Of a stretch of 36,730 nucleotides of DNA, positions 4,517 to 36,730 are shown piece after piece; position 1 is the first letter of the stretch; each line of letters begins with the position of its first letter. The notes beneath the pieces were generated by a model. The model did not search any database. It had not been told where the DNA came from and was given only the letters and a program-made list of their open reading frames with translations. The stretch is taken from positions 1 through 36,730 of the forward strand of contig CAYILI010000003.1 of NCBI GenBank assembly GCA_964364105.1, in the 5' to 3' direction. Both the position numbers and the translations under genes were made by a program. Source of the stretch: an uncultured Gammaproteobacteria bacterium. GTDB lineage: Bacteria; Patescibacteriota; Microgenomatia; Levybacterales; UBA12049.

Positions 4517-4524
4517 TATTATGA

Positions 4525-12517: not shown

Positions 12518-12523
12518 AGCCGT

Positions 12524-16550: not shown

Positions 16551-16574
16551 ACTTATGTTATAATTGCTACATAA

Positions 16575-16928: not shown

Positions 16929-16975
16929 CTTCCGAAGCATCAACTATCACGAAATAAGTGATATAATTCCTCCTT

Positions 16976-17728: not shown

Positions 17729-17730
17729 AA

Positions 17731-20513: not shown

Positions 20514-21085
20514 ATTTCTTCTATGTTAATAAGCCTTGCTCTGACCCTATATCTATTTTGATCAAAAACCCCATCGCAAGTAATTAATGTTAAAATTGGA
20601 TTTTCCTCCGGGTAAAATGCTTCAACTGATGAAGGTAAAACCTTATCGCTTGCCTCAACTACGTAAAATGCTTTATAGTTTTGACCATAAACAATTACGC
20701 TGTCTCCAACCGAGAGCCTCTTAATATTTAAAAAAACATCAGGAAGGGCATGACCAAATATTCCTACATTTCCTGTCTTTTCATTAATAAGACTCGTACC
20801 TTCTGCGAAATTTGCAACACCCGGATGAACTTCCCATGTACCATTTTCCATAGGAACCGAAACAACAGGAAGATCAATACCCGCTTTCTCCATTACCACC
20901 CTTTCTGGAGTAAAAGATATTACGTTTTCTTGTTCCACGTCAACCGACACATAACAATTAGCACACTCCCCGTCACCAGCATCTACTACCTGCGCAAACT
21001 TTTGGTCCAGTGTGACAAAACTTAATATTGCAGTAGTTAATAAGAAAACTGCAAATATGTTAACCCTATTTAATAAAAACTTCAT
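20510..21085 (-). CDS. Sortase
   Basis: N-terminal TM and the catalytic triad GNVGIFGH, LTLITC and R (NRYRVRA). Confidence 0.9.
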   Translation of the reverse strand: MKFLLNRVNIFAVFLLTTAILSFVTLDQKFAQVVDAGDGECANCYVSVDVEQENVISFTPERVVMEKAGIDLPVVSVPMENGTWEVHPGVANFAEGTSLINEKTGNVGIFGHALPDVFLNIKRLSVGDSVIVYGQNYKAFYVVEASDKVLPSSVEAFYPEENPILTLITCDGVFDQNRYRVRARLINIEEI

Positions 21086-21270
21086 ACACTCCTATTTTTT
21101 AAATATCGGCTGATATGTCCCAATAACATTAAGAATAATATTGCGTTAATAACTACAAAACTTGCTGCTATTACAGGGTGAACTTTATCTGCTAGGATAA
21201 ATCCTGCAGCTGAAGTCGCTGGCAATGCAGTTGCTAAACCCAATACTCCTCCTTTTCCATATTCTGTCAT
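21082..21270 (-). CDS. Minimal sortase-substrate-like peptide (LPATS + TM + basic tail)
   Basis: RBS AGGAGGTG 9 nt before ATG 21270; sequence GGVLG...LPATS, a hydrophobic helix, then RYLKNR. Confidence 0.7.
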   Translation of the reverse strand: MTEYGKGGVLGLATALPATSAAGFILADKVHPVIAASFVVINAILFLMLLGHISRYLKNRSV

Positions 21271-21290
21271 ACTATAAAACACCTCCTTTC

Positions 21291-22718
21291 TTACCTGGTT
21301 CCCCAGGCAGCTCCATAACCAATTCTGGAAAATCCAGATTGGCTTAGCTTATATAAATTGTTAATTCCAGTTACAAACTTAGAAGCGGCAAAACTATAAA
21401 ATAAAAACAAATATGAACCTAAAAGAATAAGACTTAATAAATTCGAATAAATGAATTCCGGGAAGAAAGTAAATTTAAGAATAGAATCTTTGAAATCCCG
21501 ATCAGGATAGGAGAGATGTGTGAAAACCGTATAAACTATAATTACTGCAAAATTTATTGAAGAAATTGCAAATAAAACAGGCGTAAATGCTGACTCCTTA
21601 TAAGTTCCTGCATAAATAAAGGATAGTGTAATCAAGATCAACAAAACTATAAAAGTGAAATGTCCAACCAGGTCTTGGTAAATTGCAATAAACCAATTCC
21701 AGTTCTGAATTATTACTCTTAAGCCTCCACTTGTCCATCTTGCCCGTTGTTTCCAAAGACTACTAAATGTTTCCGGAACTTTTGTCCATGCCACAGCAGT
21801 CTGAGAAATTCTAACTTCCCATCCTTTTATTTTTGATCTAACAGTAAAATCATAGTCTTCGATCAGATGCCCCTTTGAAAAACCGTTTAGATCTTCTAGA
21901 ACAGTCATTCTAATTGCTGCTAACATCCCCTGCATTACGAGAGGACCCCGGAAAAAACCATTATCAGCAATTTTCGTAATATTAAAACTGTGATACTCCA
22001 TCGCTTGCATGCGAGTTAGCAAATTTTTATTTTTGTTTATCACTCTAACTTGAGAGCAAACAATTCCAATTTTTGAATGTTTATAAAGTTCATTTATCAT
22101 CTCGGGAATTGTACTTTGGATAATTTTTACGTCATCATCAAATGTGAAGACTACATCTGGTCTTTGATAAACCAATGATCTTAAATAATTCACTCCATAA
22201 TTTAGGGCTCCAGCTTTCATTTGATTTTCAGCCGTTCTTAGAATAATAATCTTGTAATTAAATCTTGCTAATTCAGAAATCATAGAAAAAATATTTTGAG
22301 TTTCGGAATCATTTGGAGAAGAATCATCAACTACCACAATTGATACCTTTGGAAACCAATCAGAAATGGATTTTATTAAATTATATGTTTCAATTGATGG
22401 CTTATAAGTGGGAATTACTACTGAAACACTTTTACCATAAAAGGTGGCTTCAAAGCTTTTTTTAGCAGGAGTTTTTGGAATAAAAAAACTAGAAAAATTC
22501 TCTAAAGTTTTTTTAGAGATGTTACGTAAGATAAATTTTCGAGCGTTATAAAGTATAAAAAATATTTTTATAAAGCCTGAAACTAATAGATATAGCTTGA
22601 AGCTTGGGGACGATAAAACTTGTTTTGCGATTAAAATATCGCCTGTTAAAAATAGCAAAATAAATAAGCTATCTAGAAAAAACCTCAATTGCCCCGAAAT
22701 ATTTGTGTTCTTATACAT
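21291..22718 (-). CDS. Processive GT2 glycosyltransferase (IcaA/PgaC/cellulose-synthase-like)
   Basis: Motifs VSVVIPTY, VVDDSS, KAGALN, FDDD, IEDYD and QRARW; flanking TMs. Confidence 0.9.
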   Translation of the reverse strand: MYKNTNISGQLRFFLDSLFILLFLTGDILIAKQVLSSPSFKLYLLVSGFIKIFFILYNARKFILRNISKKTLENFSSFFIPKTPAKKSFEATFYGKSVSVVIPTYKPSIETYNLIKSISDWFPKVSIVVVDDSSPNDSETQNIFSMISELARFNYKIIILRTAENQMKAGALNYGVNYLRSLVYQRPDVVFTFDDDVKIIQSTIPEMINELYKHSKIGIVCSQVRVINKNKNLLTRMQAMEYHSFNITKIADNGFFRGPLVMQGMLAAIRMTVLEDLNGFSKGHLIEDYDFTVRSKIKGWEVRISQTAVAWTKVPETFSSLWKQRARWTSGGLRVIIQNWNWFIAIYQDLVGHFTFIVLLILITLSFIYAGTYKESAFTPVLFAISSINFAVIIVYTVFTHLSYPDRDFKDSILKFTFFPEFIYSNLLSLILLGSYLFLFYSFAASKFVTGINNLYKLSQSGFSRIGYGAAWGTR

Positions 22719-22929
22719 AAAACAGGGCAAGGACAGAGATTATATTGTACATTATAGGTTGTGTCAACAAGAAATCTTAAATTCTAAGAATTACAGTTAA
22801 ATCAAGAACTTACAAATGATAGGGGACTAGATGCTTATAGGATAATTTTTCCGCAAATTCTATAATTTTCTTAACCCAAATCTTCAAATACTAATACTAT
22901 AGTTTGATTTAAGAATAAAAAGATTAAGA

Positions 22930-24620: not shown

Positions 24621-25379
24621 TTACGGATGGTAGGGGACTTCGTGCTTGAACTTACTTTTTTCTGCAAATTTTATAATTTTCCGGGCTCCCTGATGCATCG
24701 ATTCAATTGTCCAAACCGGGTTTTTCTTATCAAAATATAAATAAAGAACAGGATCTGCTTCTGCATAAGTAAAACCAAACTCTCCTTCGTCAGTTTGATC
24801 ATTCCAAAGGTTTGCAGAAGGAGGTTTGTCGATGATTGATTTTGGTAAACCTAAATACCTGGCAAGTTCATAAACCTGAGTCTTGTACAAATGCTGGAGG
24901 GGCTCTACGTCTGATGCCTCATCTCCAAACCTTGTAAAATATCCCAATTGGTATTCAGATCTATTTTCTGTACCAATTACGAGTGCATTATTTTTCTTAG
25001 CAAAATCAAAAAGTGTAATCATCCGAACGCGTGCCATTATATTTCCGCGTCTTACAAGATCTTCCTTTGGAATTTCAAGCCTGCTAAACATATCATCAAC
25101 AAAATTATTTATAGAAATTTTTGTAGTTCTGATTCCAAGACTTTCTTCAATTACTTTTACATCTGGATCAATTTCATTAAAATAGGGGAGGTGTATTGCG
25201 ATTATGTTTTCCGGAGCAATAACTTTTGAAACAAGATAAAGACTGGTTGCAGAATCCACTCCTCCCGAAATCCCAATAACTACTTTTTCTATTTTCTGCT
25301 CCGTAAAAGTCTTTTTTAAGAAAGCGACAATCTTTTTTTCTTCTTCCGCTGGATTGATCTCAAGTAAATTATTAAACAT
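24621..25379 (-). CDS. nadE: NH3-dependent NAD+ synthetase
   Basis: Motifs VIGISGGVDSA, GNIMARVRM, GTENRSE..LGYFTRFGD, LYKTQV, PPSANLW and QTDE. Confidence 0.95.
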   Translation of the reverse strand: MFNNLLEINPAEEEKKIVAFLKKTFTEQKIEKVVIGISGGVDSATSLYLVSKVIAPENIIAIHLPYFNEIDPDVKVIEESLGIRTTKISINNFVDDMFSRLEIPKEDLVRRGNIMARVRMITLFDFAKKNNALVIGTENRSEYQLGYFTRFGDEASDVEPLQHLYKTQVYELARYLGLPKSIIDKPPSANLWNDQTDEGEFGFTYAEADPVLYLYFDKKNPVWTIESMHQGARKIIKFAEKSKFKHEVPYHP

Positions 25380-25938
25380 ATAAATTATTTTCTTTTATGT
25401 ATCTTTCTACTTTTTCTGGTACTAAATATTTTATAGTTTTACCGGTTTTTATTCGCGCTCTTATAACAGTTGATGAAAAATTTGCGACCTGAAGAGTAGA
25501 GGATTCTACTAGCTTAAATCCAAGTGGCAAATTTTCTGGTAATTTATAAGGATCTCTGGGAAAAACTAAAAACGTAGCTTCTTTTACTAATTCCTCTGTG
25601 TTTTTCCATCTATCAAATTCTCTAACGATGTCAGATCCCACTACCCAAAAAATCTCTGCATTTGTTTCTTCTTTTAATGCTTTTATGGTATCGATTGAGT
25701 AACTTACGCCTTTTCTTTTTATTTCTATGTCTGAGACTTCCATTCTTTCTTCAAGAACTGACTTAATCATTTCCGTTCTATGTTCTGGACTTGCCTGAAT
25801 AGGCTTCCAGTGGTGTTCATAGGCTGGCACAAAAACAACTTTGTCTATATTTGGATCAAATTCTAAAACCTGTCGGGCAATTAATAAATGGCCCACGTGA
25901 ATAGGATCAAAACGTCCTCCCAAAACTGCTATCCTCAT
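25372..25938 (-). CDS. nadD: Nicotinate-nucleotide adenylyltransferase
   Basis: Motifs GGRFDPIHVGH, SYSIDT, VVGSD and SST.IR; likely start MRIAV at 25938. Confidence 0.93.
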   Translation of the reverse strand: MRIAVLGGRFDPIHVGHLLIARQVLEFDPNIDKVVFVPAYEHHWKPIQASPEHRTEMIKSVLEERMEVSDIEIKRKGVSYSIDTIKALKEETNAEIFWVVGSDIVREFDRWKNTEELVKEATFLVFPRDPYKLPENLPLGFKLVESSTLQVANFSSTVIRARIKTGKTIKYLVPEKVERYIKENNLYV

Positions 25939-25991
25939 TTCGAAAGTATAACACGTCAAGCGGACTAGCTTCAAACTGATATAATAAACGA

Positions 25992-26771
25992 ATGAAAGCT
26001 TGGTTATTTGACGTAGATGGAGTTATTACAAATCCAGAGCTTAAAAAGGCAAATCCCCAAATTATTAAAAAACTTTCCGAAATCCTAGAAAGAGGAGAAA
26101 TCCTGGGTTTTAATACAGGCAGAGCACTTGAGTTCGTAATCGAGGATGTTTTAAAACCACTGAACGTGGCACTCACAAACAAAGAGCTTTTATATAATGT
26201 TTTCTTCGTTGGGGAAATGGGTGGAACATGGGGAGATTATAAAAATGGAAAAATCGAAGATACAATTGACCCTCAAATCACAATTCCTGATGAATTAATC
26301 CAGAAAATTAGAGATCTAATTTCTTTTAAATATTCTGACACTATGTTTTTTGATGAAACCAAAAAAACTATGATTTCTGTCGAACTTATAAAAGGAAAAG
26401 ATTTGGCTCGGTTTCACGAAGAACAAAAAAAACTTATAGAAGATATGAGGAAGATCCTTGAGCATTTAGGTGACGCTAATTTAGTAATTGATCCAAACAT
26501 TATTTCGACAAATATCATAAACTCTCATGTGGGGAAAGACCTAGGAGTCAAAAGATTTCTCATGCTTATTAAAGACCGACCCGAACCTGAAGAATTTGAG
26601 ACATTTGGTGATAACCAAAGCGACTTAGAGATGCATAAATATCTTATTAAAAACGGCCACAAATCGAGATTTATATATGTAGGAGCTAAAGAAATCGAAG
26701 AAGGGAAAAATATAATTAAAACAAAAGCCAAATTCGACAAAGGAACTATAGAATATTTATCAGTAAACTAA
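25992..26771 (+). CDS. HAD-superfamily hydrolase (Cof/IIB-like)
   Basis: Motifs LFDVDGVIT, NTGR, K (GKDLG) and FGDNQSD. Confidence 0.85.
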   Translation: MKAWLFDVDGVITNPELKKANPQIIKKLSEILERGEILGFNTGRALEFVIEDVLKPLNVALTNKELLYNVFFVGEMGGTWGDYKNGKIEDTIDPQITIPDELIQKIRDLISFKYSDTMFFDETKKTMISVELIKGKDLARFHEEQKKLIEDMRKILEHLGDANLVIDPNIISTNIINSHVGKDLGVKRFLMLIKDRPEPEEFETFGDNQSDLEMHKYLIKNGHKSRFIYVGAKEIEEGKNIIKTKAKFDKGTIEYLSVN

Positions 26772-26780
26772 TACTAAATA

Positions 26781-28172
26781 TTATATTTCTGGAAATATAA
26801 TTGTGTCTTTGATATTCTGTCTATCACCCAAAACCATTAACAATCGGTTTATTCCTATTCCAACTCCTGCTGTTGGGGGAACCCCATATCTTAATGCTTT
26901 TACCAAAGGATTGTTTGCATGATTCTGGCCACCTATACCTAATTTATTCTCTAGATCTTGAAGCTCAAGTCTTTGCTGTAGTTCGTCAGGATCTGTTAAA
27001 TTGCTTGAAATGTCAGCAAAACCCATACCAGCAATACACGCCCAGGCTCTCTCAACAATTTTTGGATCATAAGATTTTGCTTTCCCAAGCGGAGCTACTG
27101 ATACAGGAAACTCTTTTAAGAATGTCGGCTGAATCAATCTAGGAACGACTAATCTCTCTATTAACTTACTTATTCCCTGGCTATATGTTAAATTTTCTAT
27201 ATCTATTCCTAATTGCATTGCCCTATCTCTAAGCTGACCTTCAGTCTCTACATCGGTTAAGGAAAAACCACCGTATGTTCTTAGGGCATCATTTACCGTT
27301 ACTTGATCCCAGATTCCAGACAAATCCACAGCATTCCCATCAACGAAAAATTCCATTTTTCCAAATGCCTTAAATGCTGCATTTTTTACCAATACCTCAG
27401 TTAGCAACATCATGTCATCATAATCTGTGTAAGCAGCATATGCTTCAAGAGTTGTGTACTCAGGACTATGCATCCTGTCCATTCCTTCATTGCGAAACGA
27501 CTTTCCAAGCTCATAAACTCTTTCAAATCCACCTGCTATTAATTGGACAAGCTCAACTTCACTAGTGGGACGCATGTACACATCTGAGTCTAAGGAGTTA
27601 TGATGGGCTATAAAAGGACGGGCCTGACCAGATTGAAATCTTCTTCTCAGTACCGGAGTCTCAAATTCTTGAAACCCTAACGAATTTAAATTATCTCTAA
27701 ATGCTCTTACTAGAGTTGAGGCCTGGCTAAAAAATTCCAAAGAATCACCATCAGAAATTAACTGTAATGGAAAATTGTCTCTTCTTTTTCCAACATCTCT
27801 TACCCCATGAAACTTATCAGGATATCTATCTAGAAACTTAGCAACTACATCATGCTCTGATACTAAAATACTCGGCTGCTGGCTTTTTGGTAAAAAAGGG
27901 ACTCCATTTACTCGTAAAATATCTCCAAGCGAGACGCCACTAAGCACTCCTGAAGTAGACTCTTCATCAGCGGGAAATACAGCTTGAACTGTTCCAGTCA
28001 TATCTTTTAAGTCAGCAAATCCAATCGTCTTCATCCTTCGTATACCGGCAACTCTTCCTCTCAACTGGACAGGGCTGGGATTCTGCAGCGAATCTGCGAA
28101 CGCTGCGTTAAAATCTCTCATACTTTGATAAGACTCTTGTTGATCTTGACTCCTTCGACCTAACTCAGGCAT
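26781..28172 (-). CDS. Divergent class II lysyl-tRNA synthetase paralog
   Basis: OB-fold (GRVAGIRR...FADLKD.TG.VQ), motif 1 GFQEFETPVL, motif 2 FRNEG..HSPEY and motif 3 YGVPPTAGVGIGINRL, with an altered ERAW/GMGFADISSNL segment. Start ATG 28172 overlaps the upstream stop (alternative TTG 28193). Confidence 0.85.
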   Translation of the reverse strand: MPELGRRSQDQQESYQSMRDFNAAFADSLQNPSPVQLRGRVAGIRRMKTIGFADLKDMTGTVQAVFPADEESTSGVLSGVSLGDILRVNGVPFLPKSQQPSILVSEHDVVAKFLDRYPDKFHGVRDVGKRRDNFPLQLISDGDSLEFFSQASTLVRAFRDNLNSLGFQEFETPVLRRRFQSGQARPFIAHHNSLDSDVYMRPTSEVELVQLIAGGFERVYELGKSFRNEGMDRMHSPEYTTLEAYAAYTDYDDMMLLTEVLVKNAAFKAFGKMEFFVDGNAVDLSGIWDQVTVNDALRTYGGFSLTDVETEGQLRDRAMQLGIDIENLTYSQGISKLIERLVVPRLIQPTFLKEFPVSVAPLGKAKSYDPKIVERAWACIAGMGFADISSNLTDPDELQQRLELQDLENKLGIGGQNHANNPLVKALRYGVPPTAGVGIGINRLLMVLGDRQNIKDTIIFPEI

Positions 28173-29160
28173 GACTAGACCCGTCCTCTCCAAATAAATA
28201 TCTCATTGGGTTAACATATGACATCGATCTTCTAATTTGATCAGGTAACCTATTGAGTAGAGCCACTTCATCTTCATAGGTAACTTTTACGAGAATTTTT
28301 TTATTTGCATCGTCGGTAACCGTAGTCCACGGTTCATCTGTTCCCCAAAGAACTCTGTCGGGTATTAAATCATAAACTTGAGCTAATACCTCAAGTGGAT
28401 CTTCGTATGCGAGATCTAAAACTTCTCCATCAGTTCTTTGTTGTGCAAAGTGACAGTTAGTAATATGGGGTGCTACATCTACAAAAAGATTTTCTGATCT
28501 TCCCGCTCTTAACCGATTAAAAAAAGTTGCTTCGAAATCACCTGCATGAGCTATGCAAATCCTAAGATCGGGTAATTCTTCAGCAACATCTAGGGCTTGC
28601 TCTGGTCTTGAATATTCATCAGGTCCCGAATGAAACATTACCGGAAGGGAATGATCCTGGGCAAATCTTGCAAAAAGTGATTCAACGAAAGAAGACAGTG
28701 GTGTGTGTGTCGCTAATGAGTGGAACTTGAGGCCAAATAATTGATCCGTTGAGGTAAATTCTCTAAGCAAGTCAATCTGCTCTTCTTCTTTTACTCCAGG
28801 TAAAACATTCGCGAAGGGCATAATTCTATCCCTGCCAAACAATTCTACTTCAGAAAAATGAGCTCTATTTGCGTGTTCATATGGAAACCTTTCCGCAGGC
28901 TCCCGTGAAGGCTCCCAGTTCGCATCAAATGCAACTCCTCTTGCATCAAACCAAAATAGATCACTTGGAGCAGGAAATACCGCTGCATGACTTACACCAT
29001 TTGCATCCATTTTCCTTACCATATCTAAAATTCCTTGAGCTATTGGATACCTTCTTCTTACGATATTTGTGGCATCAAAACCAGCATGAGAATGCGAATC
29101 AATAATTGAAGCATCCGGAGTATTTAATAAAACGCTATAGGCTTTGGCTCTTTCTGTCAT
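28165..29160 (-). CDS. Amidohydrolase-superfamily (Amidohydro_2-like) metal-dependent hydrolase
   Basis: Motifs IIDSHSH, GLKFH, PVMFHSG, IAHAG and VLWGTDEP; likely start MTERAK at 29160. Confidence 0.85.
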   Translation of the reverse strand: MTERAKAYSVLLNTPDASIIDSHSHAGFDATNIVRRRYPIAQGILDMVRKMDANGVSHAAVFPAPSDLFWFDARGVAFDANWEPSREPAERFPYEHANRAHFSEVELFGRDRIMPFANVLPGVKEEEQIDLLREFTSTDQLFGLKFHSLATHTPLSSFVESLFARFAQDHSLPVMFHSGPDEYSRPEQALDVAEELPDLRICIAHAGDFEATFFNRLRAGRSENLFVDVAPHITNCHFAQQRTDGEVLDLAYEDPLEVLAQVYDLIPDRVLWGTDEPWTTVTDDANKKILVKVTYEDEVALLNRLPDQIRRSMSYVNPMRYLFGEDGSSHA

Positions 29161-29163
29161 ACT

Positions 29164-29213
29164 ACTTGTAAAACAAGTTTGGCTAGTATACAATACAGTA
29201 TTAATAAAAACAA
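29164..29213. promoter_or_regulatory. Overlapping divergent promoters with a palindromic operator
   Basis: Plus strand TTGTAA-17-TACAAT (29166-29194); minus strand TTGTTT-17-TATACT; ACTTGT-AAA-ACAAGT at 29164-29178. Confidence 0.55.
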
Positions 29214-29217
29214 TCCT

Positions 29218-30228
29218 ATGAGATATAAACTTTTACTAATCTTATTCGGAATAATTTTAATTGCTGGATTTACAGCGATATATACCAGAAATACTGAAAC
29301 TGAAAAAACCAATAATATAAATATGAAGATTGGGTGGCAAACACCTTGGGCAGTACAAGGTCAATTGACTCAAATACTAAAACACACAGATATTCTTGGC
29401 AACGAAAACATATCCGCAGAATTTAAAGGCTTTACTTTCGGCGCACCCCTAAACGAAGCAGCACTTTCAGGCCATGTTGACGTAATTTTTACCGCAGACC
29501 AGCCAGCAGCAACTCTCCTAAGCAAAAGTTCGGACTGGGAAATTATTGGAAGACTTATGTACAATAGAGTCTCCGTTTACGTCCCCCCGCAATCTCCAAT
29601 AAAAACAGCAGCAGACCTAAGGGGTATGACTGTAGCAATGCCTTTTGGCGCAGCTGCACAAAGATATGCATATAAAATTCAACAAGATTCTGGCTTAAAT
29701 CCTGCGACTGATGTTAATAACATTAACCTGGATATCCTAGAACAAGCATCTCTCGTAAATGATAAAAACGCAGTAAAGTGGGGGAATATCGATGCATTAG
29801 CAGGTTTTGATCCCACACCGGCAATATTTGAAGAAAAAGGATTAAGCAGAAATATAGGCGTAGGACATGTAGTTTCGGTTATTTTAATGTCAAAATCATA
29901 TATAGCAAGCAATCCAGATGCTCCTGAGAAATTTCTAAAAGCTTTTGAAAGCTCTTATGCTTACTATAAAAATAACCAAGCTCAAGCAGATGACTGGTTT
30001 ATTAAAGAATCTAAGCTACAATTGTCACCCAAGGCATTGCAACTATCAGCAAGTCTTGAACCGAATTTAAAAAAGGATAATGAAATAAGAATTTCCTTTA
30101 ATGATAGCGACTATAAAATCATGCAAGAAGCTGCTAATTTCTTGTATTCTCAAAAATTAATAAATAAGCAGGTTAACATGAAAGAACATGTGAATTTAAA
30201 TTATTTAAATAAAATCAAAGGTGAATAA
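29218..30228 (+). CDS. ABC transporter substrate-binding protein (SsuA/TauA/NMT1 family)
   Basis: N-terminal TM, F..GAPLNEA..SGHVD, SPIKT.ADLRG.TVA.P.G and Y...NPD...KFLKA. Confidence 0.88.
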   Translation: MRYKLLLILFGIILIAGFTAIYTRNTETEKTNNINMKIGWQTPWAVQGQLTQILKHTDILGNENISAEFKGFTFGAPLNEAALSGHVDVIFTADQPAATLLSKSSDWEIIGRLMYNRVSVYVPPQSPIKTAADLRGMTVAMPFGAAAQRYAYKIQQDSGLNPATDVNNINLDILEQASLVNDKNAVKWGNIDALAGFDPTPAIFEEKGLSRNIGVGHVVSVILMSKSYIASNPDAPEKFLKAFESSYAYYKNNQAQADDWFIKESKLQLSPKALQLSASLEPNLKKDNEIRISFNDSDYKIMQEAANFLYSQKLINKQVNMKEHVNLNYLNKIKGE

Positions 30229-31349
30229 TGCAAAATTTACTTCTTATTTCACTTGATACAGTAAGAGCCGACGTAGCGTACAGCAAGAAATTTCCAACAA
30301 TAAATAAACTAAGATCGGAAGGGGTTACATTTTTAAACACAGTCTCCTCGTCTCCTCTTACACCTTGTAGCCACACAACAGTTTTTACTGGTCTCCAGCC
30401 TTATAACCATGGAGTGAGGCACTTATTTAGAGAAAGGTTACCAAAAAACATTCCTACATTTACTCAAGCGCTCAAACAAAAAGGCTACAAAACAAAAGCG
30501 ATTGTTTCCTGTCCGGGAATGAATAAATGGTATGGATTCAGCAAGGGATTCAACAGCTATGATGATGAAATCCCAAGATTAGCGGACGGCTCCGATCCAT
30601 TAAAAACAGTGGATGTTAAAAAAAGAGGAACTGCTTTAAAAAGAGCAAAGCTTGTAAGCGAAAAAGCGATTGAGTGGCTAGAGAATAATAAAAAAGAGAA
30701 TTTTTTTCTGTTTATCCATTTTTTTGATGCACACTGGCCCTATGAAGCACCTGAAAAAATTATGGGAGACAATCCCTACGAAGAAGAGGTAGGATATATG
30801 GACCATTACCTGGGAAAAGTTATTGAATATCTTAAGAAGAATAATCTTTTTGATAACACTACTATTATTGCCTTTTCTGATCACGGTGAAGATTTAGACG
30901 GATGGTATCCAAATGACAAGGGAGGATCTAGATTAGGCCATCCAGAGGAGATGGGACACGGATGCCTATTATATCAGCAGACACAAAAAGTTTTATTAAT
31001 TATAAAAGATAAAAACTTACCGTCAAATAAAAACATTAAAAACCAGGTAAGACTTGTCGATGTAAACCCAACAATTCACGATCTAATGAGTCTTAAGCAA
31101 AAACAGAAAAAACTTGACGGCGTTAGTATTCTACCAATCATAAAGGGCTCAAGCTTAAATCTTATCGGATATTCTGAAACCCTATATCCTGAGGAGCTTG
31201 CTAAAAATGACCCAAAATTCAAAAAAATAAAAACAAAAAAATCCATTATCTACAATCAAACTAAGCTCATCTCTGATATATCAGGAAACAATACAGAGGT
31301 GTATGATTTAAATAAAGATCCAAACGAAACGAATAACCTTTTTAAATAA
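30228..31349 (+). CDS. Sulfatase-like alkaline-phosphatase-superfamily hydrolase/transferase (Thr nucleophile)
   Basis: Motifs ISLDTVRAD, SPLTPCSH..FTG, HFFDAHWPY, FSDHGE, GHG and YDL.KDPNE; no CxPxR. Confidence 0.85.
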   Translation: MQNLLLISLDTVRADVAYSKKFPTINKLRSEGVTFLNTVSSSPLTPCSHTTVFTGLQPYNHGVRHLFRERLPKNIPTFTQALKQKGYKTKAIVSCPGMNKWYGFSKGFNSYDDEIPRLADGSDPLKTVDVKKRGTALKRAKLVSEKAIEWLENNKKENFFLFIHFFDAHWPYEAPEKIMGDNPYEEEVGYMDHYLGKVIEYLKKNNLFDNTTIIAFSDHGEDLDGWYPNDKGGSRLGHPEEMGHGCLLYQQTQKVLLIIKDKNLPSNKNIKNQVRLVDVNPTIHDLMSLKQKQKKLDGVSILPIIKGSSLNLIGYSETLYPEELAKNDPKFKKIKTKKSIIYNQTKLISDISGNNTEVYDLNKDPNETNNLFK

Positions 31350-32227
31350 TGGACTTAAATAAAGTAGTTAAATTTCTTGACGGCTTCTTTAACACCAAAC
31401 AATCTGGTCCGGATCTTCCTTTCTCTAGACTTATTCCTAATATATATAATAGTGGTGGAATTAGACTTTCAAATTTCGTATACCCTGATTTTACGAAAAA
31501 TTTTAATGGGCTAATGTTCAAAAACGCCGACCAGGTCGATGATTTTTTTTCCACAGTTTTCCTGTCTCAAGATGCAATTGACCGCATTGCTAACAATGAC
31601 AGTAGGAAACTATTAATTACGCATCACCCCATGGATGATAATACAAGCGAAAAAGGTTTTCTTCCATTAACAGAAGCGTATCTGGATAAAATAATAAAAT
31701 ATAAAATATCAATTTACTCACTACACAATCCTCTTGACCAAAATAAGAATATTTCTTCTTCTAAATCAATCGCAAATGCTCTTTCATTAAATAATTTAGA
31801 ATACTTTATGGATAACGAGGGGGTAGTTGGAGAACTACCAGAATGGTTATCTACAGAAGAACTATTAATAAAAGCTAAAAGTATTTTTGGAATATCTGAC
31901 ATTAAGTCAGTTGAAAAATCAAAAAAGAATAAAAGAATTGCAGTAGTTGCTGGGGGCGGTTCCGAGCCAAGCACCTTAGAAATTATAAGGAACCTAAAAC
32001 CTGACGCATATATAACTGGCGAATATATTAGTAGAATAAAAAATAATTTTGCCGAGAAGGAAAGAGGTAAATTCAATGAACTTTTACCAAGCTTAGACTT
32101 TAGCCTAATAGGCGCTTCTCACTATGCGACAGAAAGCTTAGTGCTTAAGAATGAACTCAAAAAATTACTAGACGATGAGCTTGGGATAAACCTCAAATTT
32201 TTAGATCAGGAGGATTCCTGGTATTAA
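31349..32227 (+). CDS. Nif3/YbgI-like dinuclear metal protein (annotated family 'GTP cyclohydrolase I type 2')
   Basis: Motifs NGL, ITHHP, IYSLHNPLD, IAVVAGGG, YITGE and SHYATE. Confidence 0.85.
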   Translation: MDLNKVVKFLDGFFNTKQSGPDLPFSRLIPNIYNSGGIRLSNFVYPDFTKNFNGLMFKNADQVDDFFSTVFLSQDAIDRIANNDSRKLLITHHPMDDNTSEKGFLPLTEAYLDKIIKYKISIYSLHNPLDQNKNISSSKSIANALSLNNLEYFMDNEGVVGELPEWLSTEELLIKAKSIFGISDIKSVEKSKKNKRIAVVAGGGSEPSTLEIIRNLKPDAYITGEYISRIKNNFAEKERGKFNELLPSLDFSLIGASHYATESLVLKNELKKLLDDELGINLKFLDQEDSWY

Positions 32228-33633
32228 TGAAGAGTAAACCCTATGAAAAAATTATACTCATCTCTCTTGATACACTTAGAGCAGACTGTATTCCGTCTAA
32301 TCCTAATAAACTTTATAAAAATAAATATCAATTAGATATAGAAATCGAAGACTCTATTTTAAATCAAATATCCAAGAGTGGATTTTTCTTTAACAATGCC
32401 GTTTCCGTTGCGCCTTACACTTCAGCATCTCATGCTGCCTACTTTACGGGTAAATGGCCAAAAAATAATGGCTTATATGACCAGTTCAATAGTAAACTAC
32501 GAAACGATGTCAAAACAATTTTTAAGCTTCTTAATGAAAATGGGTATGAAACTATTTTTAAAACAGATTTTCCCTTCATTCTTGGAAAGTATCTAAATTT
32601 AATAAAAGGGGTGGATAAATATTTCATCGAAGATGACAACGCTGCATTATCAAGCATAAAGAAGAATAAAAAACAGCTTGTTTTTTTTCATTTTGGACAA
32701 ATACATTACCCCTATGGTTTCCACAACTTAAAGTATGGAGGAGAAGACTACGTTAAAAAACTAAATCAACTTGAAAAAAAATACAAAATAAAAACAAATG
32801 AAATCAGCTTAGAAGACATGGCAATCGAATCCTTTAGATCTGATAAAGATATAGAAATGCTTTTTCGATATAAAAAAATAATTTCACATTTGTATAAAAA
32901 TAGGCGAGATAGCGAACTCTTCAATCTGTACATTGAGGGAATTAATTATTTTAATAAAAAGAAGCTGAACGGTTTTCTATCAAAGCTTATTGATTTGTTG
33001 AATAAAGAAAATTATCTGATAGTGATCTTTGCTGATCACGGAGAAGCCTGGAACGATAGCGCCTATGGTCATCATAACTCATTAGATGAAGATGTTTTAA
33101 GAGTCCCAATAATTTTCTACTCAAAAGATATAAAACCAAAAACCTACGGAAACAGAATTCGGACAATTGATCTAGCGCCTACAATCGCGGACATTCTTGG
33201 AATAAAAGCTGATTACGATGGGAAAAGCTTGAAAGATATAATTTACAGCGATATTGTTGAAGAGGATAGAGAGGCATTCTCTGCAATTTGGGTAAATGAA
33301 TCCAATGCTGTAATAAAACAGATTAAAAGTTTATTAAAGAAAGATAAAATAAGCTTCAATAAGTCTAAGTCTATTAAATATGGCGCTAGTGTATACAAAA
33401 ATAATTTTAGATACGTTGAGTACTATAAGAAATTTGCAAATAGAAGTGAGGAGCTTATCAACCACAACAGTGAAGCATTGTACAAAAATGGAGAACTAGT
33501 TAGAAAAAAAGACTCAAAGGTTCTAAAAGGACTTAAGGCTAGGATTTCAACTCTAAACAATATTAACACTCAAAGCAATATTTCACCTGAAGAAATAAAA
33601 AGCTATTTAAGATTACAAGGATATAAAGTCTGA
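32227..33633 (+). CDS. Second sulfatase-like alkaline-phosphatase-superfamily protein
   Basis: Motifs ISLDTLRAD, APYTSASH..FTG, IHYPY, FADHGE, GHHNSL, VPIIF and IDLAPTI; C-terminal LRLQGY. Confidence 0.85.
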   Translation: MKSKPYEKIILISLDTLRADCIPSNPNKLYKNKYQLDIEIEDSILNQISKSGFFFNNAVSVAPYTSASHAAYFTGKWPKNNGLYDQFNSKLRNDVKTIFKLLNENGYETIFKTDFPFILGKYLNLIKGVDKYFIEDDNAALSSIKKNKKQLVFFHFGQIHYPYGFHNLKYGGEDYVKKLNQLEKKYKIKTNEISLEDMAIESFRSDKDIEMLFRYKKIISHLYKNRRDSELFNLYIEGINYFNKKKLNGFLSKLIDLLNKENYLIVIFADHGEAWNDSAYGHHNSLDEDVLRVPIIFYSKDIKPKTYGNRIRTIDLAPTIADILGIKADYDGKSLKDIIYSDIVEEDREAFSAIWVNESNAVIKQIKSLLKKDKISFNKSKSIKYGASVYKNNFRYVEYYKKFANRSEELINHNSEALYKNGELVRKKDSKVLKGLKARISTLNNINTQSNISPEEIKSYLRLQGYKV

Positions 33634-33634
33634 T

Positions 33635-34213
33635 ATGTCAATCGTAAGTACAACAAAACTGCAACTAAAATATGGGGAATTTAACGTAAGCTACCATTCA
33701 TCTAAAAAGGGTGAATGCGTTTCATTCTGGCTCGGAGATTTATCAAAAAAAAATCCTGTTATAAGAATCCATTCTGCCTGTCTTTTCGGTGAGGCCTTCT
33801 CCTCCCTTCACTGCGACTGCAATGATCAACTCAATGAGACTCTCAAAGAGATTAAAAGTAATGGAGCCGGGGCAATAATTTATTCGTATTCTGAGGGCAG
33901 AGGAATAGGACTAAGAAAAAAAATTGAAGCAATGGAGATCCAGAGAACGAAAAAGCTAGATACTGTACAAGCTTTTGCCAAACTAGGACTTAAGCCAGAT
34001 CTCAGAGGCTATAATTGTGAAATTAATGCACTAAATGAATTAAGAACTAATAAGTCTATTAAATTAATATCTAATAATCCTAATAAAATAAATTCCTTAG
34101 AAAAAGCAGGTTATAAAATTACTGAAAATATAAAAATAAAAATTAATCTAAATAAATATAACCGGCAAGAGTTATTAATAAAAAAAACAAAAATGGGCTA
34201 CTACATTGACTAA
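33635..34213 (+). CDS. ribA: GTP cyclohydrolase II family protein, Tyr-to-Met variant
   Basis: Motifs RIHSACLFGE.F.S.HCDC..QL, EGRGIGL..KI.AM..Q, D.R.Y and LISNNP.K. Confidence 0.9.
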   Translation: MSIVSTTKLQLKYGEFNVSYHSSKKGECVSFWLGDLSKKNPVIRIHSACLFGEAFSSLHCDCNDQLNETLKEIKSNGAGAIIYSYSEGRGIGLRKKIEAMEIQRTKKLDTVQAFAKLGLKPDLRGYNCEINALNELRTNKSIKLISNNPNKINSLEKAGYKITENIKIKINLNKYNRQELLIKKTKMGYYID

Positions 34214-34218
34214 CAAAG

Positions 34219-34947
34219 ATGAGAAAAAATATATTAATTTTCATCTGTCTATTAATTGTCTGGCAATTATTAATAACCTACATTGTTACTGATAAAAATT
34301 TGCCTACATCACTATCTCTAACTCAGGAATTTATAAAAAGCATGAAAGAAGGGCAGATCATAAATGACATGTTCTACAGCGTTAAAAGAGTTTTTGTTGG
34401 ATATTTGATGGCATGTTTTTTTGGGATTTTTTTGGGACTCGTTGCTGCATATTTTCAAAGAATTGGCTCAACATTAAAACCAATCGTTGAGCTATTAAGA
34501 CCAATTCCCCCAATTGCCTGGATACCACTTTCTATCATTTTTTTTGGATTAGGAGACAATGCGTCTTATTTTATTGTTTTTTTAAGCTCATTTTTCCCAA
34601 TCTTTACTAACACTTATTTTGGTGCTTCGAGCCTTCCTCAGATTTATATAAATATAGCAAGGACCTATGAGGTTAATTTTCAGGATTATTTCTTTAAAAT
34701 ATTATTGAAATATTCTCTTCCTAATATTTTTACAGGATTAAAAATTGGTGTTGGAATGGCTTGGATGAGCGTAATTGCATCTGAATTAGTTAGTGCGCAA
34801 TCTGGCCTTGGATACTATATACAGATAAACCGACTTCTTCTTAATATGGATAGGATAATAATAGGAATGTTTCTTATCGGAATTATAGGGCTAATATTCA
34901 ATAAATTAATATCAATTGGTGAAAAGAGGATAATTTCATGGAAATGA
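34219..34947 (+). CDS. ABC transporter permease (SsuC/TauC family)
   Basis: Motifs S.KRV..GY, LRPIPPIAWIP and LPNIFTGLKIG...AW..VIASE....SGLG. Confidence 0.92.
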   Translation: MRKNILIFICLLIVWQLLITYIVTDKNLPTSLSLTQEFIKSMKEGQIINDMFYSVKRVFVGYLMACFFGIFLGLVAAYFQRIGSTLKPIVELLRPIPPIAWIPLSIIFFGLGDNASYFIVFLSSFFPIFTNTYFGASSLPQIYINIARTYEVNFQDYFFKILLKYSLPNIFTGLKIGVGMAWMSVIASELVSAQSGLGYYIQINRLLLNMDRIIIGMFLIGIIGLIFNKLISIGEKRIISWK

Positions 34948-35645
34948 ATGATACATTGATTTTAAAAAAAATTACTCATGTTTATTATACAAAAAGAGGG
35001 GACAGGAGAAGTATTTTTAATAATGTTAATCTAAGCATCAAAAAAGGAGAAACAGTAACAATTTTGGGGAAATCAGGATATGGCAAAACTACATTAGCAA
35101 ATATCATTTGCGGCTATCTGGAACCCACGAATGGCAATGTTTTTGTAAATGGACTAAATACAAATTCTCCTTCTAAAGAGAGGGTCATGGTAAATCAAAG
35201 TGATGACCTGTTTGACTGGATGTCGATTGAGGAAAACATGAAAATTGCTACTAAAGATGTGGCAAAAATTAATAGATATCTCATTGCCGTAAATTTAATT
35301 AATTTAAAAAATGAATATCCCCATAAACTGTCTGGTGGCATGAGAAAAAAGCTATCTCTTGCTAGAGCATTAGCAGCCAATCCAAGTATACTCGTACTGG
35401 ATGAGCCCTTCTCTTATCTAGATCATTCAACCAAAAGTGAGTTATTTTTATTCCTAAGTAAGAATCTTAAAAAAGCCAAAACAACAACTATTTTAATTAC
35501 GCATGATATTGACGAAGCCATTTATTTGTCAGATAGAATTTTCGTTTTATCAAACACTGGTGGTGGTACTCTTAAAGAATTCTTATTTAAAAAAAATAGA
35601 CTCAAATCAAAAACTTTAGTCGAGGAAATTAAAAGTCTATACTAA
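34938..35645 (+). CDS. ABC transporter ATP-binding protein (SsuB/TauB family)
   Basis: Walker A GKSGYGKTT, LSGGM, LVLDEPFSYLD and ITHDIDEA. Confidence 0.93.
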   Translation: MEMNDTLILKKITHVYYTKRGDRRSIFNNVNLSIKKGETVTILGKSGYGKTTLANIICGYLEPTNGNVFVNGLNTNSPSKERVMVNQSDDLFDWMSIEENMKIATKDVAKINRYLIAVNLINLKNEYPHKLSGGMRKKLSLARALAANPSILVLDEPFSYLDHSTKSELFLFLSKNLKKAKTTTILITHDIDEAIYLSDRIFVLSNTGGGTLKEFLFKKNRLKSKTLVEEIKSLY

Positions 35646-35701
35646 AAGCCTATAATATACTTCCTTTAAATATTTTGGTATAATGCGTTCCACTATTAAT
35701 T

Positions 35702-36730
35702 ATGGCTAATGAAAGCAGTCAACCAAGAGGCATAGGCCACCCACCAGTCGAATCTGAAGCAGGCAGGACAACATCTTCAGAATTCAACGAACAAACAAGA
35801 GTGAGGCTCGAAAAACTTAGGGCACTAAGGTCAATGGGAATAAATCCCTACCCGGATCATTTTGAAAGATCTCACCAGCCTCTAGATATCAGAACTAATG
35901 CAGATTTACTTGGAGAGACAGTTACAACTGCAGGAAGGCTAGTTGGAATTCGCAGAATGGGAAGAACCAACTTTGCTCATATTCAAGATAGTTCTGGACG
36001 AATTCAAATACACATGAATCCTGAAGGAGTAGGGGAAGACGGATTAGGATTCTTCAATGATTATTTTGATTTAGGAGATATTATTGGAGTAAGAGGAAAA
36101 CCATTCGTAACAAGGACGGGGGAAACAACAATCGGAACTGAATCTTTTCAGATGCTTGCAAAAGCTCTCAGGCCTTTACCTGATAAACATCACGGCTTAA
36201 CTAACGACGAGCTAAGATACAGAAGAAGATACTTGGAGCTAATTGCAAATCCCGATACCAGAGACAGATTTGTTACAAGAACAAAAATAGTGAAAGGTGT
36301 TAGGAATTTTCTTGATGCGCATGACTTTATGGAAGTCGACACTCCAGTTCTACAACCAGATCCATCCGGAGCTACTGCTAAGCCTTTTGTAACACATCAT
36401 AATGCTTTGGACCAAGATTTATTTTTAAGAATAGCGCCTGAAACATACCTTAAAAGATTAATCATAGGTGGATTTGACAGAGTATATGAAATGGGGAGAA
36501 TTTTTAGGAACGAAAATATTGACCCTTCTCATCTTCAAGATTTTACAATGCTTGAGTTTTATGCTTCATACTGGAATGCAGACAGAAGTCTTAAGTTTAC
36601 TGAAGCACTCTTGAGGAGCACTGCACAAGCTGCTTTAGGCGAAAATCAGGTTATTCAAATTGGAGAAAATACAATTGACTTCTCAGCACCTTGGCCAATA
36701 GCACAATATAGAGACCTTGTTTTAGCTCAT
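35702..36730 (+). CDS. lysS: Lysine--tRNA ligase (class II), 3' truncated by the window edge; absent from the ORF track
   Basis: My translation from ATG 35702 gives RLEKLRALRSMGINPYP, AGRLVGIRRMG..NFAHIQDSSGRIQ, TRTGETT, RYRRRYLELIAN, SGATAKPFVTHHNAL, LRIAPETYLKRLIIGG and FRNENIDPSHLQDFTMLEFY. Confidence 0.93.
   Translation, partial: MANESSQPRGIGHPPVESEAGRTTSSEFNEQTRVRLEKLRALRSMGINPYPDHFERSHQPLDIRTNADLLGETVTTAGRLVGIRRMGRTNFAHIQDSSGRIQIHMNPEGVGEDGLGFFNDYFDLGDIIGVRGKPFVTRTGETTIGTESFQMLAKALRPLPDKHHGLTNDELRYRRRYLELIANPDTRDRFVTRTKIVKGVRNFLDAHDFMEVDTPVLQPDPSGATAKPFVTHHNALDQDLFLRIAPETYLKRLIIGGFDRVYEMGRIFRNENIDPSHLQDFTMLEFYASYWNADRSLKFTEALLRSTAQAALGENQVIQIGENTIDFSAPWPIAQYRDLVLAH

Follow-up and report, generated by a model that had tools for sequence, protein, structure and literature searches.

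The window analysed here, a stretch of 36,730 nucleotides, carries the gene of a stand-alone enzyme with the GTP cyclohydrolase II (GCH II) fold, set within a tightly packed operon (Table 1). Between 29179 and 35645, neighbouring genes overlap or leave gaps of no more than 5 nt, and a single nucleotide separates the stop codon of AP2, a phosphatase/sulfatase-superfamily gene, from the start of the GCH II gene. An amidohydrolase and a LysRS paralogue adjoin the operon and are transcribed divergently from it. A canonical-type LysRS gene runs off the contig; its C-terminal remainder was found at one end of contig C55, the two parts sharing the residues LAH. A promoter/terminator scan gave no useful signal, with 41 promoter-like sites where 40.1 would be expected.

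Table 1. Features of the window, in order of position.
Feature	Position	Strand	Basis
Divergent class II LysRS paralogue, remodelled active-site block	26781..28193	-	NF001756, 387.8 bits vs cut-off 468
Amidohydrolase-superfamily TIM-barrel hydrolase	28165..29193	-	PF04909, 1e-13
Substrate-binding protein, SsuA/NMT1-type ABC importer	29179..30228	+	PF09084, 1.7e-07
AP1, second alkaline-phosphatase/sulfatase-superfamily enzyme, putative Thr nucleophile, cytosolic	30228..31349	+	PF00884, 2.9e-35; PF01663, 1.2e-18
NIF3/DUF34 protein	31349..32227	+	PF01784, 1.7e-25
AP2, alkaline-phosphatase/sulfatase-superfamily enzyme, putative Thr nucleophile, cytosolic	32227..33633	+	PF00884, 7.1e-23
Stand-alone GCH II-fold enzyme, Tyr-less variant clade	33635..34213	+	192 aa plus stop; PF00925
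Zinc-site segment C49...C60-x-C62, within variant motif HSACLFGE	33779..33820	+	2bz0_A alignment
Met100 codon, RibA Tyr105 column	33932..33934	+	ATG read; alignment to 2bz0_A
ABC permease	34219..34947	+	PF00528; NtrB/TauC/SsuC-like; orthologues in related loci
ABC ATPase	34938..35645	+	PF00005; orthologues in related loci
Canonical-type LysRS, cut by contig end	35702..36730	+	NF001756, 381 bits over only 343 aa

A Pfam scan assigned PF00925 as the sole domain of the GCH II-type protein (1.9e-39, 135.3 bits against a cut-off of 23.3), and no GCH III (ArfA) fold was found. The protein exceeded the cut-off of NF001591 (164.8 against 148 bits) and fell below that of the ribA equivalog TIGR00505 (151.9 against 205.85). 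Residues 4–191 aligned with PDB 2bz0, which we take to be E. coli RibA (3e-28), the fold being common over the whole length. Structural neighbours at TM 0.95 in the Atlas are GCH II without exception.

The first-pass annotation had placed a Met in the column of RibA Tyr105, and our alignment agrees. In the phmmer comparison, egrgiglrkkieameiq of the window's protein pairs with egrnigllnkirayalq of chain 2bz0_A; the latter stretch ends at residue 108, and Met100, whose codon reads ATG, therefore stands opposite Tyr105. Tyr also fills this column in 4rl4 and 4i14, the two further GCH II chains of that comparison. The catalytic tyrosine of GCH II, reportedly identified as the partner of the zinc-bound water by Ren et al. 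in 2005, is thus replaced by Met100. The protein is intact in other respects: the three zinc cysteines are present, as had been annotated, with C49, C60 and C62 opposite the cysteines of hsecltgdalfslrcdc in 2bz0_A and invariant in 51 sequences. R124, opposite R128 of 2bz0_A, is equally invariant, and the NNP-K motif is retained. Around the zinc ligands, A48, F51 and E53 stand for canonical E, T and D.

We then followed the Tyr column across relatives. The 51-row alignment comprises the window's protein and 50 of its 53 matches, the fragments P0020, P0051 and P0052 having been left out. Met100 is at least 90% conserved in it, and Met occurs in 14 of the 14 other rows of the window's 15-row subclade, whose rows come with the cluster or possibly with it. 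Across 81 genome loci, the window's own included, the column reads Y 75, M 5 and I 1; the tally for the best 150 representatives is Y 95, M 30, I 14, L 6, V 2, H 1 and N 1, with one unread. The 42 metagenome loci divide into 36 variant (M 26, L 4, I 4, unread 2) and six canonical, and Tyr is present in all 28 canonical-signature loci among the 29 same-phylum loci examined.

Loss of Tyr is accompanied by three further changes: HSEC to HS(A/S)C, CLTGD to CLFGE, and AN to AF. At positions 48/51/53/100/114 of the window's protein, canonical loci read [E/Q/S/K/A]-T-[D/E]-Y-N and variant loci [A/S/G/T]-F-[E/Q]-[M/L/I]-[F/Y/L]. The proposal of a Tyr-to-Met switch thus holds in part. The replacement itself is real, but Met co-varies with three other sites, so a single-residue switch is too simple a reading. 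The column also admits I, L, V and H, and three variant-signature proteins among the best 150 representatives keep Tyr; F51, E53 and F114 may therefore matter equally, and substitutions at these positions could alter the substrate.

The Tyr-less clade consists of stand-alone homologues from tiny genomes, with Met and less often Ile, Leu or Val in the column; we infer that the hosts are candidate-phyla-radiation bacteria and DPANN archaea. Its core of 42 rows has an SH-aLRT support of 96, and of 97 with five trait columns removed. When the 150 nearest representatives are clustered at 50% identity, the clade accounts for no fewer than about 50 of the clusters. A literature search on it found nothing relevant among the papers covered. 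A lineage trait was rejected as the explanation for the cluster: AP2 matched in none of 24 same-family genomes and once, weakly, in 400 same-class genomes. When 400 same-phylum genomes were searched, the 29 best GCH II matches examined included no variant type.

The host genome (1.2 Mb, 91.8% complete) contains a single GCH II match, the window's own. In searches for which every control genome set gave matches, this genome yielded no RibB, RibD_C or RibH and no GCH I, PTPS/QueD or FolP. A creatininase-family protein (PF02633) was likewise not found. No FMN riboswitch or other Rfam match lies within 25000–36730. RibH was not found either in four other small genomes (0.6–0.9 Mb), in each of which the variant is the sole GCH II. 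At 91.8% completeness, absence of a gene is no proof. With the riboflavin, folate and queuosine genes missing, the Tyr-less GCH II does not appear to feed those routes; a riboflavin role was rejected, as the earlier annotation had anticipated. A split GCH I route through NIF3 to pterins or queuosine was also rejected for this genome, given the missing GCH I, PTPS/QueD and FolP and the disputed NIF3 label, as was a known formamidase partner of the creatininase family.

The core genes of the operon, including the AP2–GCH II pair, recur in loci L112–L116, L119, L120, L123, L125 and L129, and wherever a related locus of the window's subclade has upstream sequence (10 of 10), AP2 directly precedes the GCH II gene. 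AP1 orthologues (59–64% identity) occur in L112, L119, L125 and L129. AP2 has D15, D20, T65, H69, D270-H271 and H282 as invariant residues, and those of AP1 are the same. S1 sulfatases carry a C/S-x-P-x-R motif whose Cys/Ser turns into formylglycine. All nine aligned AP1 and AP2 sequences have Thr instead, with His four residues on, and on this residue both were rejected as true sulfatases. By motif reading, rather than residue-level alignment to a solved sulfatase, the Thr would occupy the nucleophile position. Sequence matches of AP1 and AP2 among solved structures comprise distant S1 sulfatases and NPP only. The two phosphoesterases and the aaRS paralogues had gone unmentioned in the first-pass annotation.

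NIF3 is single-copy in the host genome; tblastn matched it in L115, L116, L119, L120, L125 and L129, and gave no match in L112. Its enzymatic annotation, the 'GCH I type 2' label, is challenged in an excerpt of PMC8469502. The substrate-binding protein scored 102 bits against TIGR01728, below cut-off, and its nearest solved relative is the sulfonate binder PDB 2x26 (7.4e-06). Judging from the hydrophobic N-terminus, its translation probably begins at the ATG near 29218.

On the divergent side, the amidohydrolase (331 aa with a start at 29160 in the database gene call) has the invariant residues D-x-H-x-H, K145, H177, H205 and D275. Foldseek matched its AF2 model (pLDDT 92) to generic Amidohydro_2 folds of the LigI/ACMSD type only, at a TM of about 0.55 and 13–18% identity, and a specific assignment by fold was therefore rejected. 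The protein belongs to PF04909 and is not creatininase-type, in contrast to ArfB and BrbF (PF02633). Homologues of the amidohydrolase and of the GCH II are both found on contigs of 11243, 9586 and 14018 nt, a co-occurrence read from equal contig sizes. Deformylation would be a reasonable candidate role for the amidohydrolase, which shows no similarity specific to any formamidase.

The neighbouring LysRS paralogue also scored below the equivalog cut-off of TIGR00499 (338.8 against 427.6) and is 36% identical to the canonical LysRS nearby. A search for close orthologues gave only four, located on contigs of 11243, 16693, 13592 and 9586 nt. In the paralogue, the canonical block ERFExFIxGxExANAFSEL reads ERAWACIAGMGFADISSNL, a change kept in five of five paralogues. 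This conserved block, that of the acidic/lysine pocket, lies between motifs 2 and 3, whose arginines are kept, as is the OB anticodon domain. Related Cys-type contigs keep the core genes, but in place of the divergent pair they have a CysRS paralogue, a radical-SAM enzyme and an isochorismatase-like hydrolase; tblastn found no amidohydrolase in these loci, and the zinc site of the CysRS-type paralogue is retained. Recent tandem duplication was rejected for the aaRS pairs, whose partners are 31–36% identical, while divergent CysRS copies are 49–61% identical across loci.

Variant genes also occur in other settings. A NADAR-domain gene directly follows the variant GCH II gene in L136 and L139, hinting at ribosylaminopyrimidine chemistry. 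The operon of a more distant variant, L005, comprises an NMT1/SsuA-type importer, a phosphoribosyltransferase, a NUDIX hydrolase and an HD_3 nucleotidase, and an HD_3 gene also lies near the variant gene in L002. A binding-protein-dependent importer, present both in the window's operon and in L005, is easier to reconcile with salvage of a compound taken up from outside than with a pathway simply starting at GTP. The window's cluster contains no phosphoribosyltransferase, and neither it nor the host genome contains a NADAR gene.

We compared the locus with known systems. E. coli RibA (PDB 2bz0/2bz1) and the window's enzyme share the fold, the zinc Cys triad, the Arg128 equivalent and NNP-K; they differ in Met for Tyr105, in HSAC, CLFGE and AF for HSEC, CLTGD and AN, in the ribA equivalog score and in a host without rib genes. 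Another relevant enzyme is S. coelicolor SCO6655, a GCH II homologue with Met120 that reportedly makes FAPy, a finding ascribed to Spoonamore et al. in 2006. Tyr-to-Met exchange in S. coelicolor GCH II paralogues is said to switch the product, the Met-type enzyme opening the ring. SCO6655 resembles the window's enzyme as a GCH II-fold paralogue with Met in the Tyr column and outside riboflavin synthesis, but the latter is the sole GCH II of a roughly 1 Mb genome. The first-pass annotation had also invoked a formate-removing hydrolase next to SCO6655; our literature search found no paper on one. In an excerpt of PMC13151069, the third S. coelicolor GCH II copy is credited with 'a completely new function'.

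The archaeal GCH III ArfA, together with ArfB or bacterial BrbF, parallels the two-step logic proposed here, namely ring opening with the formyl group left and a separate amide hydrolase. The GCH III fold is unrelated to GCH II. ArfB and BrbF are described as creatininase-family AFRPP formamidases in part of PMC9478397, where the bacterial 'GCH III' partner of BrbF is still sought. These enzymes feed riboflavin, whereas the window's cluster does not, and its genome has no creatininase-family protein. Another parallel involves COG3236, which we take to be the NADAR domain. According to passages of PMC5312566, COG3236 splits the N-glycosidic bond of early riboflavin intermediates, and RibA–COG3236 fusions are located in rib operons. 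The adjacent variant GCH II and NADAR genes of L136 and L139 recall these fusions; the window differs in having no NADAR gene. Finally, the pathways to azacitidine (AzaE) and 8-azaguanine begin with ring opening of GTP; a cluster with a phosphoribosyltransferase and a phosphatase then rebuilds the resulting aminopyrimidine, as set out in a portion of PMC13749301. Proposed GTP ring opening followed by a dedicated cluster is common to both cases. The azanucleoside gateway differs in being GCH I-type (same portion of PMC13749301) and in belonging to Streptomyces clusters with efflux resistance genes, and no homologues of the azanucleoside tailoring enzymes were seen in the window's cluster.

Our main reading, to which we assign a probability of about 0.5, is that the Tyr-less GCH II would make N-formyl AFRPP/FAPy from GTP as the entry metabolite of a non-riboflavin accessory operon. 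By analogy with SCO6655, a formylated product is plausible. Enzymes of this clade are predicted zinc-binding proteins of the GCH II type, with Tyr exchanged for Met (elsewhere Ile, Leu or Val) and nearby polar residues for Phe, Glu and Phe. Most likely, GTP would be bound, pyrophosphate released and the imidazole ring opened; the reaction would then halt at, or chiefly release, 2-amino-5-formylamino-6-ribosylamino-4(3H)-pyrimidinone 5'-phosphate (AFRPP/FAPy). This compound would enter a self-contained, patchily distributed accessory operon, with AP1 and AP2 as its presumed phosphoesterases and the SsuA/NMT1-type importer included. NIF3 is possibly a metal chaperone for the operon's metalloenzymes, and the divergent amide hydrolase, beside the aaRS-derived paralogue, is the best candidate for formyl removal. 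The sequence features, the clade, the gene neighbourhood and the lack of riboflavin genes are observed, whereas we infer what the enzyme acts on, that its product is formylated, what each partner does and what the pathway finally makes.

The retention of all metal and phosphate ligands would also suit a complete GCH II, in which another pocket group replaces Tyr, formate is still released and the cluster uses DARP. The three variant-signature proteins with Tyr point to a pocket compatible with the full reaction, the known formamidase family is missing from the genome, and NADAR proteins, the neighbours in L136 and L139, are known to act on deformylated intermediates (excerpt of PMC5312566). 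We nevertheless consider a complete reaction unlikely: Tyr is kept in 75 of 81 genome loci and in every canonical-signature same-phylum locus examined, its loss coincides with that of two more polar residues, and an amide hydrolase co-occurs with the variant gene (an isochorismatase-family hydrolase in Cys-type clusters). The reported product switch upon Tyr-to-Met exchange in S. coelicolor argues in the same direction. If instead the ring chemistry were lost altogether, the protein could be a GTP pyrophosphohydrolase yielding GMP and pyrophosphate, or a GTP-binding subunit or regulator of its neighbours. The Arg128 equivalent and phosphate-binding motifs are retained while the residue activating the zinc water is gone, and the close, possibly translationally coupled pairing with AP2 would suit a complex. 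Clade-wide invariance of the zinc cysteines argues for zinc chemistry kept, and the Met-type S. coelicolor enzyme is reported to open the ring; such a loss therefore seems very unlikely.

Purine salvage, serving organisms unable to make purines, would run in the opposite direction. Instead of cellular GTP, an imported formamidopyrimidine base, nucleoside or nucleotide, for example damaged-guanine debris, would be converted to its 5'-phosphate by the phosphoesterases, or by a phosphoribosyltransferase in other genomes, and closed to a guanine nucleotide by an enzyme unable to deformylate. SBP-dependent ABC systems are importers, and ThiY, a related binding protein, binds a formylaminopyrimidine. 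Linkage of an NMT1/SsuA-type importer to the variant gene in two subclades, the window's and that of L005, fits such a route, as do the phosphoribosyltransferase, NUDIX and HD_3 genes of L005 and the HD_3 gene near that of L002. Against it, the reverse reaction is without evidence in any GCH II, the window's cluster lacks a phosphoribosyltransferase, and the nearest solved relative of the binding protein binds sulfonate, at 7.4e-06 only. Salvage would also leave the aaRS paralogues unexplained, and we regard it as quite improbable.

A more speculative reading, which we hold to be doubtful, takes in the aaRS paralogues: a ring-opened guanine nucleotide supplied by the Tyr-less GCH II would be reshaped by AP1, AP2 and the amide hydrolase, and the aaRS paralogue would couple an amino acid or tRNA to it in an undescribed GTP-derived pathway of ultra-small bacteria and archaea. 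If true, the outcome would be either a novel tRNA modification or a new aminoacyl-pyrimidine/purine nucleotide that could act as antimetabolite, cofactor or signal. The amino-acid module would change with the type of cluster, LysRS-type with a rewritten amino-acid/Mg pocket versus CysRS-type. Core genes with exchangeable aaRS-derived paralogues point to unexplored nucleotide chemistry in organisms deemed nearly without biosynthesis.

GCH II is usually taken as a marker of riboflavin synthesis, and a large Tyr-less clade in genomes without the pathway breaks this link; automatic annotation as 'RibA' thus gives false predictions of vitamin B2 autotrophy for genomes of the candidate phyla radiation and DPANN. 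With four co-varying sites rather than one, the clade is a natural test of the residues that govern formyl release. The search for the missing 'GCH III' partner of BrbF could likewise use its signatures.

The only actinobacterial Met-type sequence retrieved, L004 from Actinomadura, is one of three GCH II copies in its genome and has a gene context wholly unlike that of the window. It joins the variants with a support of 82, dropping to 29 without the trait columns, and L004 sits on a long branch. HSACLFGE and Met are common to L004 and the window's protein.

The 192-residue GCH II variant of the window, P0001, scored 164.8 against the NCBIfam RibA subfamily model, over its cut-off of 148, and 151.9 against the ribA equivalog, under its cut-off of 205.85. 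In a phmmer search of solved structures, 2bz0_A matched residues 4-191 at 3e-28 and set the P0001 segment egrgiglrkkieameiq opposite egrnigllnkirayalq. This chain segment ends at residue 108, and Met100 therefore falls in the Tyr105 column, where the 4rl4 and 4i14 chains also carry Tyr. With an ATG codon at 33932-33934, the alignment bears out the Met-for-Tyr105 assignment of the first-pass annotation. C49, C60 and C62 lie opposite the three cysteines of 2bz0_A and R124 opposite its R128, and none of the four varies across 51 aligned rows (the query and 50 of 53 hits; three fragments left out), so the zinc cysteines are intact, as had been claimed; the earlier description of P0001 was correct in all testable details.

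Met100 belongs to a wider signature. At positions 48/51/53/100/114, all fetched canonical loci read [E/Q/S/K/A]-T-[D/E]-Y-N and all fetched variant loci [A/S/G/T]-F-[E/Q]-[M/L/I]-[F/Y/L]. The switch column held Tyr in 75, Met in five and Ile in one of 81 genome loci, the window's own included, while 42 metagenome loci divided into 36 variant (Met 26, Leu 4, Ile 4, unknown 2) and six canonical. In the 150 top representatives of a 50% clustering, the residues were Tyr (95), Met (30), Ile (14), Leu (6), Val (2), and His, Asn and unknown (one each). Three of these representatives, P0206, P0218 and P0219, keep Tyr despite the variant signature (S-F-E-...-F) and are natural 'revertants'; two more, P0214 (992 aa) and P0232 (988 aa), hold three GCH II-like stretches each.

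A quick IQ-TREE analysis covered 92 rows: all 45 variant rows in which 150 or more residues aligned, and 47 of 104 canonical rows (45 drawn at random and, where the draw had missed them, chosen loci such as L146). It grouped 42 rows in a core variant clade with SH-aLRT support of 96, and of 97 without the five trait columns. Tyr loss is the trait of a clade, more than a point change. The only actinobacterial Met-type sequence found (L004, Actinomadura; 8.3 Mb genome with three GCH II copies) joined the variants weakly on a long branch, support being 82 and, once the trait columns were removed, 29. In L146, the gene at 3647-5248 (533 aa) joins a GCH II domain, signature A-T-E-Y-N, to a RibD_C reductase domain, and L147, L148, L150 and L151 hold such fusions too.

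The window's genome (1.2 Mb, 116 contigs, 91.8% complete) gave a single GCH II match. Lumazine synthase, RibD_C and DHBP synthase, and likewise PTPS/QueD, dihydropteroate synthase and GCH I, had no match in this 91.8%-complete genome, with control genomes giving matches each time; this speaks against a riboflavin, folate or queuosine role of P0001. Positions 25000-36730 matched no Rfam family, FMN riboswitch included. Lumazine synthase was likewise not found in four other small genomes (0.6-0.9 Mb) with the variant as sole GCH II; in the Actinomadura genome, it adjoins a canonical GCH II copy. Across the phylum, 34 of 400 sampled genomes had a GCH II match, and of the 29 best of these 34, 28 bore the canonical signature, mostly in open frames of ~400 aa, and none was of the variant type.

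The P0001 gene sits in a run of seven genes with overlaps or with gaps of no more than 5 nt; transcribed divergently beside this run are the genes of a LysRS paralogue and an amidohydrolase-superfamily protein.

Coordinates of the cluster and flanking genes
Feature	Position	Strand	Description
Seven-gene run	29179-35645		SsuA/NMT1-type binding protein, AP1, NIF3, AP2, GCH II variant, ABC permease, ABC ATPase
AP1	30228-31349	+	
NIF3	31349-32227	+	
AP2	32227-33633	+	
GCH II variant P0001, 192 aa	33635-34213	+	PF00925, 1.9e-39, domain full-length
Canonical LysRS	35702-36730		Downstream of operon, broken by end of contig C3
LysRS paralogue	26781-28193	divergent	Without N-terminal helix, OB anticodon-binding domain kept

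In all ten related subclade loci having upstream sequence, AP2 immediately precedes the GCH II gene, and NIF3, AP1, the binding protein, the permease and the ATPase also recur across related subclade loci. The cluster is rare; a search for AP2 found nothing in 24 same-family genomes and a single weak match among 400 of the same class, and every cluster gene is single-copy in the window's genome. Both AP1 and AP2 have sulfatase-family matches, yet the presumed formylglycine site, placed from the general sulfatase motif, holds an invariant Thr in 9 of 9 aligned sequences, with a His four residues on; Thr at this presumed site speaks against their being sulfatases. Their Asp and His metal ligands are retained and the N-terminus opens directly with the catalytic domain, and from that motif we read them as probable cytosolic phosphoester-handling enzymes. 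The 'GCH I type 2' label of NIF3 is disputed, and a metal-insertase role is proposed, in PMC8469502; such a role would suit a cluster rich in metalloenzymes. At 29160-29218, the 5' ends of the longest amidohydrolase and binding-protein ORFs overlap; with the former starting at 29160 (database gene call) and the latter probably near 29218, about 60 nt would be left for two divergent promoters. Farther off, the minus strand at 17731-22730 carries cell-envelope genes: a PgaC-like glycosyltransferase, a 614-aa polysaccharide deacetylase-domain protein and a sortase-like gene.

The LysRS paralogue shares 36% identity with the neighbouring LysRS and has only four close orthologues (74, 55, 55 and 53% identity) in a 5.8-billion-protein collection, making a family of five; beyond these, its matches are ordinary LysRS at no more than 39% identity. 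In all five, the motif 2-3 block reads ERAWAC..G.G.ADISSN in place of the canonical ERFExFIxGxExANAFSEL, and both the OB domain and the arginines of motifs 2 and 3 are retained. Because the rewritten block presumably carries the lysine pocket and the glutamates that bind Mg, ordinary lysine activation appears doubtful. Contigs with these orthologues include ones 11243, 16693 and 9586 nt long, which are also the lengths of the contigs of GCH II hits P0002, P0003 and P0004. The lengths 11243 and 9586 nt return among contigs with amidohydrolase homologues, together with 14018 nt, which is the length of the P0046 contig. We infer that equal-sized contigs are the same contig, which would place both sets of homologues on contigs that also hold a GCH II hit.

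In L115/L119, L116, L117 and L125, the same core is accompanied by two CysRS genes, an isochorismatase-family hydrolase and a radical-SAM protein; the neighbours in these loci were annotated from 76 of 159 ORFs, those already identified by tblastn being left out. The two CysRS of a pair differ in score, 360-418 bits for one and 287-302 bits for the other. Between loci, the weaker copies share 49-61% identity, against only 31-34% with their own neighbours; they keep the zinc ligands, and read QIGN for HIGH and KMSKE for KMSKS. An aaRS gene also adjoins the variant in L050 (TyrRS), L141/L142 (LysRS) and L112 (class Ib), and CysRS lies near L002; no aaRS gene is adjacent in L003, L004, L005, L121, L124, L127, L131, L136 or L139. 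One adjacent aaRS in a ~1 Mb genome is not rare, and it is the paralogues specific to the cluster that give the strong signal. In L125, the stretch at 16330-19664, downstream of the Cys-type cluster, holds genes for a 23S rRNA intervening-sequence protein and for IleRS, the third aaRS gene in ~8 kb.

In another subclade, a NADAR-domain gene directly follows the variant gene (L136:7099-7605, L139:6939-7520). We take COG3236 to be the NADAR domain. COG3236 splits N-glycosidic bonds of early riboflavin intermediates, according to PMC5312566. The pairing of the NADAR gene with the variant points to a path in two steps that would lead from GTP to a free pyrimidine and ribose 5-phosphate. The L005 operon encodes NUDIX, phosphoribosyltransferase, ABC ATPase, NMT1-type binding protein, permease, variant GCH II and HD_3 phosphohydrolase, and HD_3 is also near the variant gene in L002. 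The NADAR, L005 and L002 neighbours tie the variant to nucleotide/ribosylaminopyrimidine metabolism and, repeatedly, to an importer. In L112, an S66 LD-carboxypeptidase-family gene (7521-8525) lies between the permease and AP2, and a purine/uridine phosphorylase-family gene (11767-12534) just past the aaRS gene.

The Tyr/Met switch itself is already known. The S. coelicolor homologue SCO6655 is reportedly a Met120 enzyme in which M120Y restores the canonical product. Because of this work, we favour, with a probability of about 0.5, a reading in which P0001 would bind GTP, release pyrophosphate and open the ring at its zinc site; lacking the Tyr and the polar residues near it, the enzyme would leave the formyl group in place and so give AFRPP, the N-formyl ring-opened nucleotide, which the cluster enzymes would then process. 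A review describes a new function unrelated to flavin for the third S. coelicolor copy (PMC13151069). That P0001 carries out the full GCH II reaction in spite of its Met is unlikely. The importer that recurs near the variant and the L005 operon would favour salvage of an imported formamidopyrimidine through ring closure, which we consider improbable, and we give slightly less credence to P0001 being a pyrophosphohydrolase or non-catalytic.

Known AFRPP formamidases are of the creatininase family, as stated in PMC9478397, and that family had no match in the window's 91.8%-complete genome. The amidohydrolase is a metal-dependent hydrolase, with D-x-H-x-H, K145, H177, H205 and D275 invariant in nineteen homologues. 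It had no sequence match in the PDB; its AF2 model is confident (pLDDT 92), and Foldseek with this model returned only LigI/ACMSD/LigJ-type Amidohydro_2 structures (TM ~0.55, 13-18% identity). Since creatininase-family formamidases are absent and the amidohydrolase is metal-dependent, it is a fair but unproven candidate for deformylation, a part that the isochorismatase-family protein may take in Cys-type clusters.

The literature searched, which took in a minority of subscription papers, yielded no description of a large variant clade in riboflavin-less ultra-small genomes, of the four-site signature, or of a conserved cluster with swappable aaRS-derived paralogues; the pathway containing the variant GCH II may well be new. 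The C-terminal ~170 aa of the canonical LysRS lie at an end of C55, another contig of the same genome, with shared residues LAH, and C3 and C55 probably join at the LysRS break.
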